Positions 25,296-27,985 of a stretch of 64,000 nt of DNA are shown one piece after another (within the stretch, counting starts at the first letter, position 1; each line of letters starts with the position of its first letter). This stretch comes from Alphaproteobacteria bacterium. Lineage in GTDB: Bacteria > Pseudomonadota > Alphaproteobacteria > Rickettsiales > SXRF01. The notes under the pieces were generated by a model. That model made no database searches. It was not told where the DNA came from and saw only the letters and a list, made by a program, of their open reading frames with translations. The stretch is from NCBI GenBank assembly GCA_033763575.1, contig JANRKF010000010.1, positions 13,376 through 77,375 on the forward strand, written 5' to 3'. Both the position numbers and the translations under genes were made by a program.

Positions 25296-26324
25296 CTAAA
25301 ACGTCAGGAAGCCCACCGTGTCTTTGACTTCGCGCATGGTGGCGTCGGAGATCGTGCGGGCCTTGTCGGTGCCGCGCTTCAGTATGGCGTCCAGATGCGC
25401 CTGGTCGGCCATCAGTTCGCGCATCTTCGCGGTAATCGGCGAGAGGTGGGCCACTGCCGCCTCGGTCAATTTCTGTTTGAAGGCGGAGAAATTCAGCGCA
25501 TCCACTTCCGAGGCCGCCTGCTCGACCGACTGAGCGGTGAAGGCGGCATACATCGTCAATAAATTCTGAGCTTCCGGGCGGCTCTCATCATTGTAGCTTT
25601 TGCCCTCGACCATGTCCGATTTTGCTTTCCTGAATTTCTGCGCGATGGTGTCGGCATCGTCGGTGAGGCTGATGCGTGAATAATCGGACTCATCGGATTT
25701 GCTCATTTTTTTAGTGCCGTCGCGGAGCGACATGATCCTCGCCGCCGATTTCATAATCACCGGCTCCGGCAGGGGGAAAAATTCCTTCCCGTAATGGCGG
25801 TTGAACGCCCCGGCAATATCGCGTGATAATTCCAGATGCTGTTTCTGGTCTTCGCCCACCGGCACATGGGTGGCTTTGTAGAGAAGGATATCCGCCGCCA
25901 TCAGCACCGGGTAGCCATACAGCCCCAGCACTGCTTTTTCCTTGTCCTTCCCAGCTTTCTCCTTGAACTGCGTCATGCGGTTCAGCCAGCCGAGCGGCGT
26001 TTCGCAGGAGAGAATCCAGTTCAGCTCGGCATGGCCCGAAACCGCCGATTGCGGGAAGATCGCGCATTTTTCGGCGTCGATACCGCAGGCGATATAGGCC
26101 GCCGCCGTTTCGCGCACGGCTTTGCGTAAAGCCGCCGGCTCCTGCGGCAGGGTGATCGCATGCAGGTCGGCCAACATGAAATAGCACTCATACTGGTTTT
26201 GCAGCCCGACCCAATTGCGGATGGCACCCAGATAATTACCCAGATGCAGGTTGCCGGTAGGCTGGACGCCGGAGAGGATTCTCAAGGGCGCAGGAGGCAG
26301 GTGACAGGTGTCGGGTGACATCAT
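25296..26324 (-). CDS. trpS: tryptophan-tRNA ligase
   Basis: SGVQPTGNLHLGNYLGA, YPVLMAADILLY, VPVGEDQ, KMSKS; start may be at 26324, 26321 or a downstream TTG. Confidence 0.96.
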   Translation of the reverse strand: MMSPDTCHLPPAPLRILSGVQPTGNLHLGNYLGAIRNWVGLQNQYECYFMLADLHAITLPQEPAALRKAVRETAAAYIACGIDAEKCAIFPQSAVSGHAELNWILSCETPLGWLNRMTQFKEKAGKDKEKAVLGLYGYPVLMAADILLYKATHVPVGEDQKQHLELSRDIAGAFNRHYGKEFFPLPEPVIMKSAARIMSLRDGTKKMSKSDESDYSRISLTDDADTIAQKFRKAKSDMVEGKSYNDESRPEAQNLLTMYAAFTAQSVEQAASEVDALNFSAFKQKLTEAAVAHLSPITAKMRELMADQAHLDAILKRGTDKARTISDATMREVKDTVGFLTF

Positions 26325-26419
26325 AAAAAAACAATGGTACGGATTAAAGACGGATTTTTATAACGTTTGAAATTGAATAAAGCAATGTCTGTCACCTGCC
26401 ACCTGCCTCCTGCGCCCTT
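26284..26419. repeat. heptamer-arm inverted repeat bracketing the trpS/hemB divergent spacer
   Basis: Arms 26284-26321 and 26385-26419 share 27/28 nt (cacctg[t/c]cacctgcctcctgcgccctt). Confidence 0.88.
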
Positions 26420-27392
26420 CCCTTTGACCCGGCTGCGCCGCCTGCGCCAGGCGCCATGGATCCGTGAGCTTGCCGCCGAAACGCGCCTGCACCCGTCGGA
26501 TCTCATTTTGCCCATTTTTGTGACCGAGGGTGAGAATCGCACCGACCCGGTGGCGAGCATGCCCGGCGTGGCGCGCCTGTCGCTCGATTTACTGGCGGCG
26601 CGGGCGAAGGAAGCGCAGTCACTCGGCATCCCGGCCATCGCGCTGTTCCCCCATGTCGAGGCGGGCAAGAAAACCCCGCTGGGCGAGGAGGCGCTGAACC
26701 CCGATAATCTCGTCTGCCGCGCCATCAAGACCCTGAAAAACGCCGTGCCGGAAATCGGCGTGATTGCCGATGTCGCGCTCGACCCCTACACCTCCCACGG
26801 CCATGACGGCATCATCGAAAATGGTGATGTGGCGAACGACGCCACCGCCGAAATCCTCTGCCAGCAAGCCTTGCTCCACGCCGAAGCCGGGTGCGACATC
26901 ATCGCCCCCAGCGATATGATGGACGGGCGCATCGGCGCCATCCGCACGGCGCTTGAGGTGAGCGGCTATACCGGCACCATGATCCTCTCCTACGCCGCGA
27001 AATATGCCTCGGCGATGTACGGCCCGTTCCGCGACGGGGTGGGCAGCAGCAGCGCGCTCGGCAAGGCCGATAAACGCACCTACCAAATGAACCCGGCAAA
27101 TGCGGATGAGGCGATGCGCGAGATCGCCATGGATATTGCCGAGGGCGCCGACATGGTGATGGTGAAGCCCGGCCTGCCCTATCTGGATGTGATCCGGCGG
27201 GCGGCGGGCGCGTTCGATGTGCCGGTGCTGGCCTATCAGGTGAGCGGGGAATATGCGATGATACAGGCCGCAGCAGCAAATGGCTGGGTCGATGGCCCGG
27301 CGGTCATGCACGAGCAGCTCCTTGCCCTCAAACGCGCCGGCGCCCGCGCCATCCTCACCTACGCCGCGGTGGAGGTGGCGAAAACAATCTGA
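26385..27392 (+). CDS. hemB: porphobilinogen synthase
   Basis: RLRRLR, ALDPYTSHGHDG, APSDMMDGR, SY.AKYAS..YGPFR, MVKP, YQVSGEY. Confidence 0.97.
   Translation: MSVTCHLPPAPFPLTRLRRLRQAPWIRELAAETRLHPSDLILPIFVTEGENRTDPVASMPGVARLSLDLLAARAKEAQSLGIPAIALFPHVEAGKKTPLGEEALNPDNLVCRAIKTLKNAVPEIGVIADVALDPYTSHGHDGIIENGDVANDATAEILCQQALLHAEAGCDIIAPSDMMDGRIGAIRTALEVSGYTGTMILSYAAKYASAMYGPFRDGVGSSSALGKADKRTYQMNPANADEAMREIAMDIAEGADMVMVKPGLPYLDVIRRAAGAFDVPVLAYQVSGEYAMIQAAAANGWVDGPAVMHEQLLALKRAGARAILTYAAVEVAKTI
27334..27383 (+). repeat. 50-bp direct repeat, left copy (hemB 3' end)
   Basis: 48/50 identical to 28011-28060. Confidence 0.92.
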
Positions 27393-27423: not shown

Positions 27424-27702
27424 ATGGACATAGAAATTATTTTTGACCCCAATAAAGATCGCCGCAATATCGATAAGCACGGCATCAGCCTGTCCAGTAT
27501 CGTTGATATTGATTGGCCGCTTGCGGTAACGCGGGAAGATGACAGAGTGGATTATGGTGAACACCGCTACCGTATATTTGCACCGCTGGATGGAATTTTG
27601 CATACGGCTGTCGTCGTATGGAGGAAAGGGACGATGCGAGGCATAAGTTTGCGGCAAGCGAATAAAAAAGAAAGAAAATGGTATGAAGAAGAAATCGGCT
27701 AA
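27424..27702 (+). CDS. BrnT-family toxin
   Basis: FDPNKDRRNIDKHGISL, DDRVDYGEHR, R.ISLRQANKKERKWY. Confidence 0.9.
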   Translation: MDIEIIFDPNKDRRNIDKHGISLSSIVDIDWPLAVTREDDRVDYGEHRYRIFAPLDGILHTAVVVWRKGTMRGISLRQANKKERKWYEEEIG

Positions 27703-27985
27703 AAAACGTATTGCGCCCACCCGGCCAGACAAGGAAAATCCTGAATGGACACGCGAGGATTTTCGCCGCGCCCGCCCGGCGGTCGAGGTGTTCACCGAGC
27801 TGATGGGACGCGAGGCGGCAGAAGCCTTCGTCTATAAAAAACGTGGACGCCCACCGAAGCCGCAAACCAAAAAACTGGTCTCCATGCGGCTTGACAGCGA
27901 AGTGATCGACGCCTTCCGTGCGCGTGGTGCTGGCTGGCAGACGCAGATCAATGACGTGCTGCGCGAATGGGTCGAGACACATTGA
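27683..27985 (+). CDS. BrnA-family antitoxin
   Basis: ENPEWT, RGRPP...K..VSMRLDSEVIDAFRA.G.GWQTQINDVLR. Confidence 0.92.
   Translation: MKKKSAKKRIAPTRPDKENPEWTREDFRRARPAVEVFTELMGREAAEAFVYKKRGRPPKPQTKKLVSMRLDSEVIDAFRARGAGWQTQINDVLREWVETH

Follow-up and report, generated by a model that had tools for sequence, protein, structure and literature searches.

Why do two unrelated essential enzymes begin with the same eight residues? In the 64,000-nucleotide stretch of DNA analysed here (the window, in whose numbering positions are given), which belongs to a drinking-water MAG of 1.94 Mb and 55.6% G+C, the genes for tryptophanyl-tRNA synthetase and porphobilinogen synthase are divergent neighbours. 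The trpS gene occupies 25296–26324 on the minus strand, with ATG codons at 26322–26324 and 26319–26321, and hemB occupies 26385–27392 on the plus strand, with its ATG at 26385; the list of open reading frames had opened hemB further upstream, at TTG 26367. The N-terminus of TrpS is MMSPDTCHLPPAPLRILSG and that of HemB, counted from ATG 26385, is MSVTCHLPPAPFPLTRLRR. An earlier note, made from the letters alone, had proposed that the octapeptide TCHLPPAP common to both is encoded by one inverted repeat around a divergent spacer of about 60 nt. The translations confirm the common octapeptide, and 60 nt indeed lie between the two start codons.

The left arm of the repeat is found at 26284–26310 and the right arm at 26393–26419, with no strand assigned to either. 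They are 27 nt each, 26/27 (96%) complementary and 82 nt apart, so that the position proposed before holds, as does the outward reading in frame. On the plus strand the left arm is G-rich; on the minus strand it encodes residues T C H L P P A P L of TrpS, and an imperfect heptamer tract extends from it on to 26320. The right arm is composed of the units CACCTGC, CACCTGC, CTCCTGC and GCCCTT and supplies hemB codons 4–11 and part of codon 12, including TCHLPPAP. Both arms start a few bases past the start codon, and each can be read through without a stop in the frame of its gene. The sole mismatch between them sets TGT against TGC, both of which encode Cys, and thus TCHLPPAP is identical in the two proteins.

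Such a repeat is not expected by chance. The 210-nt trpS/hemB region gives a top inverted-repeat score of 24, compared with a mean of 7.1 and a maximum of 12 in 1000 shuffles, and no other 210-nt segment of the 64 kb reaches a score of 16; a chance origin was rejected on both grounds. As single-stranded DNA the region is predicted to fold into a stem of about 26 bp (z = -6.8). The 18-nt core of the arms occurs only twice in the 1.94-Mb genome. Each arm is present in contigs from independent public runs, which excludes an assembly artefact. Each arm is a tandem array of the 7-nt unit CACCTGY; TRF assigns period 7 to the two of them (C10 39673–39695 and 39764–39788), and their period-7 self-identities are 0.75 and 0.80. 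The heptamer CACCTGC belongs to the commonest heptamer family of the genome and has 26 sites in the window, compared with 8.1 expected from shuffles.

Other readings of the arms were set aside. A G-quadruplex is ruled out for the window's arms by missing G-tracts, their G-rich strand having two GGG runs only where four G3 tracts are needed; relatives such as L012 (GGGGATT) would have enough of them. Sequestering of an SD sequence by the AGGAGG in the left arm was dropped because the relatives use unrelated heptamers. A search for known RNA families at the locus returned none, with only sub-threshold matches to plant miRNA hairpins.

The earlier note had treated the repeat as a single DNA palindrome. 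It is instead one copy of a class of heptamer-array inverted repeats that extends through the genome and the family. Period-7 arrays of at least three copies number 169 in the genome, compared with 40 of period 5 and 46 of period 8, and their density is 23 per 100 kb in the loci of the family but 0.9 in 78 loci of other Alphaproteobacteria, a difference of about 25 times. Many heptamers coexist in the one genome, CAGGTGA, TTTGGTC, GGGGATT and GTTGTTA among them. The inverted array pairs (n = 27) have a strict polarity, with a G-rich left and a C-rich right array in 26 and the reverse in none, and the trpS/hemB locus follows it with its G-rich arm 5' and its C-rich arm 3'. As a rule the C-rich arm borders on the start of the next gene or overlaps with it. 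In a seed-based catalogue of 19 heptamer inverted repeats the loops measure 13 to 82 nt, the one between trpS and hemB being the longest. Two further divergent pairs of this genome have N-termini in common, namely MTKD in NadB and NadC and MTK in PolA and an esterase, which tells against a shared peptide by design.

At both of these loci, which lie outside the window, the repeat itself can be seen. At C24:84437–84558 a heptamer inverted repeat encloses a 60-nt spacer, and its outermost unit CATGACCAAA gives MTK to polA and to the divergent carboxylesterase gene. The divergent nadB/nadC locus (C30:34142–34231) has an inverted repeat of GACCAAA type, with a conserved GTTATAC motif in the centre; the relatives L136–L165 have their own heptamers at the same spot (CAACTGC, CAACCAA, GACCAAC).

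The family was surveyed in 44 species of 19 genera. Divergent trpS and hemB are neighbours in about 30 species and in none of the 78 other alphaproteobacterial loci. A heptamer inverted repeat directly after both ATG codons is found in 9 species genomes and 3 metagenome contigs, hence in at least 9 of the roughly 30 species. Four more species have heptamer tracts on both sides which are now mutually mismatched. About two thirds of the family are arm-less at this locus, and some of these have an SD sequence instead.

The heptamer unit varies between species while the two arms of one genome are nearly always alike. All positions of the arms match in L011 (unit CATCCGT, 26/26), L012 (CCCGAAT/CCCCAAT, 31/31) and L014 (CGTGCCT/CATGCCT, 28/28), the last with its ATG codons within the arms. 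The match is 27/29 in L125 (CCATCAA), 18/19 and 23/26 in L126 and L135 (both CACTAAG), 22/25 in L119 (CCTGACC), 17/18 in L004 (CACCAGT) and 22/24 in L132 (CCCTAAT/CCCGAAT). The unit CACCTGY of the window recurs in L013 and L131, and in L131 both proteins contain ATCHLPPAT. At their best register the arms stand in the same frame in 11 of 12 cases, as fits start codons that are part of the repeated unit. L126 and L135 are the closest arm-bearing pair, and there the orthologous hemB arms resemble each other more closely than the trpS and hemB arms of either genome do. Homogenisation of the arms is therefore not fast or continuous.

The DNA between the arms has its own history. This spacer (26311–26392, no strand assigned) is AT-rich, includes both start codons and is presumed to be a promoter/5'-UTR cassette; across loci it measures 60–90 nt and is orthologous across genera. 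All loci were oriented by their genes before the spacers were aligned, and scores were checked against 500 shuffles. L017 and L020 align as reverse complements with a score of 77 and directly with 17; the corresponding scores are 64 and 17 for L126 and L009, and 45 and 18 for L013 and L017. None of the 500 shuffles reached the reverse-complement scores, and the direct scores are at chance level. For G046 an independent DNA search of the whole genome gave a strand that is consistent with inversion. The spacer homology does not end at the start codons but extends into the codons that follow, by up to about 20 nt between L126 and L009, which places the breakpoints in the arm positions. Opposite orientations were found within one genus, g19, where L014 differs from L126 and L135, and also between sister genera. 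On the HemB tree, 3 changes are needed when orientations called from motifs are counted in, and at least 2 on alignment evidence alone. The spacer lies in opposite orientation in different lineages, and this implies at least two inversions.

The nadB/nadC locus, with its lineage-specific heptamer repeats, served as a control. There every strong match between spacers is direct, with no inversion found, so the signal at trpS/hemB is not an artefact of the method. By the same result, inversion is not shown to be a general property of the heptamer class. To be noted, L017 and L020, which provide the best-supported inversion, are arm-less today; we infer that the arms were present when it happened.

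In the relatives a motif series is common to several genera: CATTGACG, about 17 nt, TATAGC and then AATATTCAAG (alignments A1 and A2). The series is promoter-like, and its CATTGACG ... TATAGC part adjoins trpS in some lineages and hemB in others. The window's own spacer gives alignment scores of at most 23 with the relatives in either orientation, and its orientation was assigned by a promoter-like motif only, a weak motif reading. A candidate sigma-70-type promoter towards trpS was read by eye at 26357–26385 on the minus strand, with a -35 element TTGCTT (26385–26380) adjoining the hemB ATG, 17 nt, and a -10 element TATAAA (26362–26357); TATAAC and TATAAA, likewise read only by eye, overlap at 26357–26364 and were considered as a candidate symmetric -10 region of a bidirectional promoter, a type in which one such region serves two divergent transcription starts about 18 bp apart. 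A scan of the locus for sigma-70 promoters or terminators gave none at threshold. In another genome of the window's genus (L003 of G001) the trpS-hemB spacer is 465 nt long, AT-rich and without heptamer arms, and is filled with tandem repeats on the unit GATAGTAATTTAGC(A/G)A, broken by a run of N.

We consider it probable, with moderate confidence, that the heptamer arms recombine with each other, whereby the arms would stay alike and the promoter cassette would flip, the peptide being a tolerated by-product. The trpS/hemB element is a local copy of the lineage-wide class of inverted heptamer arrays, in which the 5' arm is G-rich and the 3' arm C-rich whichever strand is read. Its arms lie just inside two divergent reading frames, 1–14 nt past each ATG and running outward, and would thereby put the same C-rich sequence into both mRNAs and the same short extension, outside the catalytic domains, into both proteins. 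Non-reciprocal exchange, by gene conversion or template switching, would copy changes from one arm to the other and may in this way keep the arms of each genome near-identical even though the heptamer drifts from species to species. Where the exchange is reciprocal, it would invert the promoter/5'-UTR cassette of 60–90 nt. Since each arm carries the start of its reading frame in the same frame, a flip would leave both proteins unchanged and would only swap the promoter and leader facing each gene. Neither catalytic domain includes the octapeptide, whose sequence is free to vary from species to species, and it is thus most likely a tolerated passenger. We infer arm–arm recombination as the cause and an octapeptide without function of its own.

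Recombination or template switching between short inverted repeats, as in quasipalindrome correction (the Ripley model) and short-inverted-repeat inversion in E. coli, perfects the complementarity of the arms and can invert the intervening DNA. No dedicated enzyme is needed. The known cases are mutational hotspots or laboratory constructs, whereas here the result has persisted at a single orthologous site throughout the divergence of a family.

Recombination leaves the G-to-C polarity of the class unexplained, which suggests that a further constraint acts, either on the RNA or in the way the mutations arise. A C-rich leader that works independently of SD is plausible, as is a function in insulating or coupling transcripts, and both would agree with the main account. 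Such a leader could also be taken as the explanation itself. The C/A-rich, G-poor arrays would then keep the initiation region unstructured where SD is little used, and the inverted symmetry would merely follow from the same array standing in both genes. This leader can coexist with arm recombination; as an explanation of the locus it is possible but rather unlikely. Neither ATG of the window has an SD sequence, in keeping with it, and a core SD motif precedes only about 28% of the roughly called starts in the genome. Further arguments come from the genome-wide position of the C-rich arm at the start of the next gene, in tandem as well as divergent settings, from the polarity itself, without a single reversed pair, and from the same bias in Xanthomonas and Nostoc, where the G-rich repeat lies antisense within 50 bp upstream of ORFs (PMC4692102). 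Against it, about two thirds of the family are arm-less here, some of them with SD instead, and neither the identity of the arms despite the change of unit between species nor the inversions of the spacer is explained by it.

The nearest described relatives of the arrays are the heptameric SSR pairs of Xanthomonas (GGGAATC) and Nostoc (GGGGAYT) and the STRR heptamers of Calothrix (Rehm et al. 2015, PMC4692102, and works cited there). For Xanthomonas and Nostoc, convergent inverted pairs and a strand bias near ORF ends were reported (PMC4692102). As in the family studied here, those repeats consist of tandem 7-nt units, typically 3–4 per array, form hundreds of dispersed arrays with frequent opposite-strand "convergent" pairs able to form hairpins, place the G-rich strand antisense shortly before ORFs and sense immediately behind stop codons, and turn over rapidly between related species. 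Here, in contrast, one genome holds many different heptamers, and the window's arms lack a run of four G-tracts and are not G-quadruplex formers. The SSRs are non-coding and mostly between co-oriented ORFs. The trpS/hemB arms are found within two ORFs, and their genes are divergent; in Xanthomonas both settings are under-represented. The loop here is a conserved promoter region of 60–90 nt, and the site is kept across the family with its two arms changing in parallel.

The earlier note had also suggested that the repeat may extrude as a cruciform around both promoters. As a putative supercoiling sensor, it would have its AT-rich spacer melted by divergent transcription, the arms would pair within each strand, and the promoters would be taken out of the duplex, with negative feedback on trpS and hemB as the effect. 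The stem predicted in single-stranded DNA and the AT-rich spacer are what such a sensor would need, and the arms have kept their complementarity across species despite the change in sequence. Recombination between the arms, for which the inversions speak, accounts equally for this complementarity, though, and many members of the family are arm-less. In addition, a loop of 82 nt would make cruciform extrusion kinetically unfavourable. We regard the sensor as distinctly unlikely.

Are the arms translated at all? The Pfam domains, tRNA-synt_1b at residues 13–294 of TrpS and ALAD at residues 15–333 of HemB, begin after the arm-coded residues, which hence form an N-terminal extension in both proteins. 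Arm-bearing species have 7–10 more codons before the conserved cores than arm-less ones. In arm-bearing relatives, 9 hemB and 7 trpS genes offer no ATG, GTG or TTG from the upstream ATG as far as the conserved core; with no alternative start, the arms must be translated there. The trpS gene of L016, like that of the window, does have an in-frame TTG. The window has two such codons, as the earlier note had cautioned, one at 26283–26285 on the minus strand, just before the conserved RILSG core of TrpS, and one at 26424–26426 on the plus strand, in hemB. If both proteins started there, the arms would be shared 5'-UTR sequence only and untranslated in the window's genome, a reading that we judge quite improbable. 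The protein MRILSG made from the trpS TTG would be just one residue shorter than the shortest orthologue start, MSRILSG, which is in its favour. The hemB TTG, in contrast, follows the conserved F-P of the FPxTR motif and stands at its variable x position, and is thus an unlikely start; the collection's gene caller places the HemB start at the ATG. The arms are open in frame in both genes, and the arm-bearing relatives, apart from L016 trpS, argue against it as well. Neither TTG is preceded by an SD sequence, although SD is so infrequent in this genome that its absence argues neither way. Downstream initiation is therefore unlikely for HemB; for the window's own TrpS a start at TTG 26283–26285 is conceivable. 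Judged from reading frames and orthologues, the arms are probably translated in both genes of the window.

Exact-protein look-ups for further strains of the window's species found none on record, and the nearest HemB homologue is only 76% identical. As a separate observation on TrpS, its match is split near query residues 112–130 in G005, G009, G019, G025, G043, G046 and G051 by an in-frame insertion of about 100–350 nt, at the same position in several species and with the frame open; where both halves share a frame, the open frames are 394–431 aa long.

Inverted repeats around a segment with promoter motifs read by eye, and the occurrence of both orientations among species and even within one genus, bring to mind a programmed phase-variable promoter, in which a recombinase would flip the segment at high frequency and re-allocate a strong promoter between trpS and hemB. 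We hold this to be very improbable. The arm sequences differ between species and thus offer no conserved recombinase site, and no recombinase is encoded among the adjacent genes, which are a histidine kinase, a BrnT/BrnA type II toxin-antitoxin pair directly 3' of hemB (27424–27985; Pfam PF04365 and PF14384) and an unknown protein. Logan contigs assembled at about 5x depth from four runs for the window (X1–X4) and three for L012 (X7–X9) have one orientation only, and trpS and hemB are essential housekeeping genes. The known invertible promoter switches (E. coli fimS, Salmonella hin, the Bacteroides capsule promoters, C. difficile cwpV) likewise have inverted repeats on either side of a short segment with a promoter, and this segment occurs both ways round. 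They differ from the present locus in having a recombinase nearby and conserved arm sequences. Here the arms belong to the coding sequence of two genes and are probably translated in each, the two orientations were seen between species only, and the flanking genes are essential housekeeping genes.

To a whole 136-bp unit of MITE type, inserted independently in either orientation in different lineages, we give almost no chance: it has 27-nt terminal inverted repeats around an AT-rich core of about 80 nt, and small repeats are plentiful in the genome, but it was rejected because the window's genome and G023 each contain just one copy of the spacer, and against it also stand the significant spacer match of G046 at the trpS/hemB locus only, the flanks (ATTCTC before the left arm and CCCTTT after the right arm) with no direct repeat and hence no target-site duplication, and a spacer orthologous across genera with conserved promoter-like motifs. 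REP/BIME repeats and MITEs such as the Neisseria Correia elements are, like the present repeat, short dispersed intergenic palindromes, some with promoter activity. In contrast to them, the whole unit here is single-copy, only the heptamer style of its arms is dispersed, and there is neither a conserved consensus nor a target-site duplication.

Among coding repeats, the Rickettsia palindromic elements (RPE) are inserted in frame in protein-coding genes. They resemble the trpS/hemB arms in that palindromic repeat DNA is tolerated as an extra peptide in essential proteins of small alphaproteobacterial genomes. An RPE lies whole within one gene, whereas here each gene receives one arm and the loop is the intergenic control region; moreover, the arms are heptamer arrays with no consensus beyond the heptamer style. 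A possible RPE-like case was seen elsewhere in the material. A peptide module GGGPGWGH...APLPTSPLR... is inserted in the N-terminal region of PolA of this genome (C24) and in the HemB homologue P0015 of a relative. It is probably encoded by a palindromic repeat, CTCCCCC(T)TGAGGGGGAG, of which the genome has many copies, and if so would be an RPE-like coding insertion.

Inverted repeats made of heptamer arrays are abundant in several bacterial phyla and barely studied. The present locus adds evidence that the two arms change in parallel and that a promoter cassette between two essential genes has been inverted repeatedly. The trpS/hemB locus offers a rare orthologous series of about 30 species, in which arms translated inside essential ORFs, parallel change of the arms and repeated inversion of the DNA between them can be seen together. 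The series links the heptamer repeat class to intramolecular recombination and gives a simple, testable model of how short inverted microsatellites may reshape promoter regions. It also holds a warning for annotation, because identical low-complexity N-termini on unrelated proteins can be derived from repeats. A bolder reading, put forward tentatively and in our view unlikely, is that the trpS-hemB region would be a natural flip-flop cassette, whose recurring inversion would heritably re-allocate the stronger promoter between tRNA-Trp charging and haem synthesis. If this were true, inversion would be put to use by lineages or by cells within a population, and heptamer arrays would offer a general way, free of any enzyme of its own, to render short stretches of DNA invertible.
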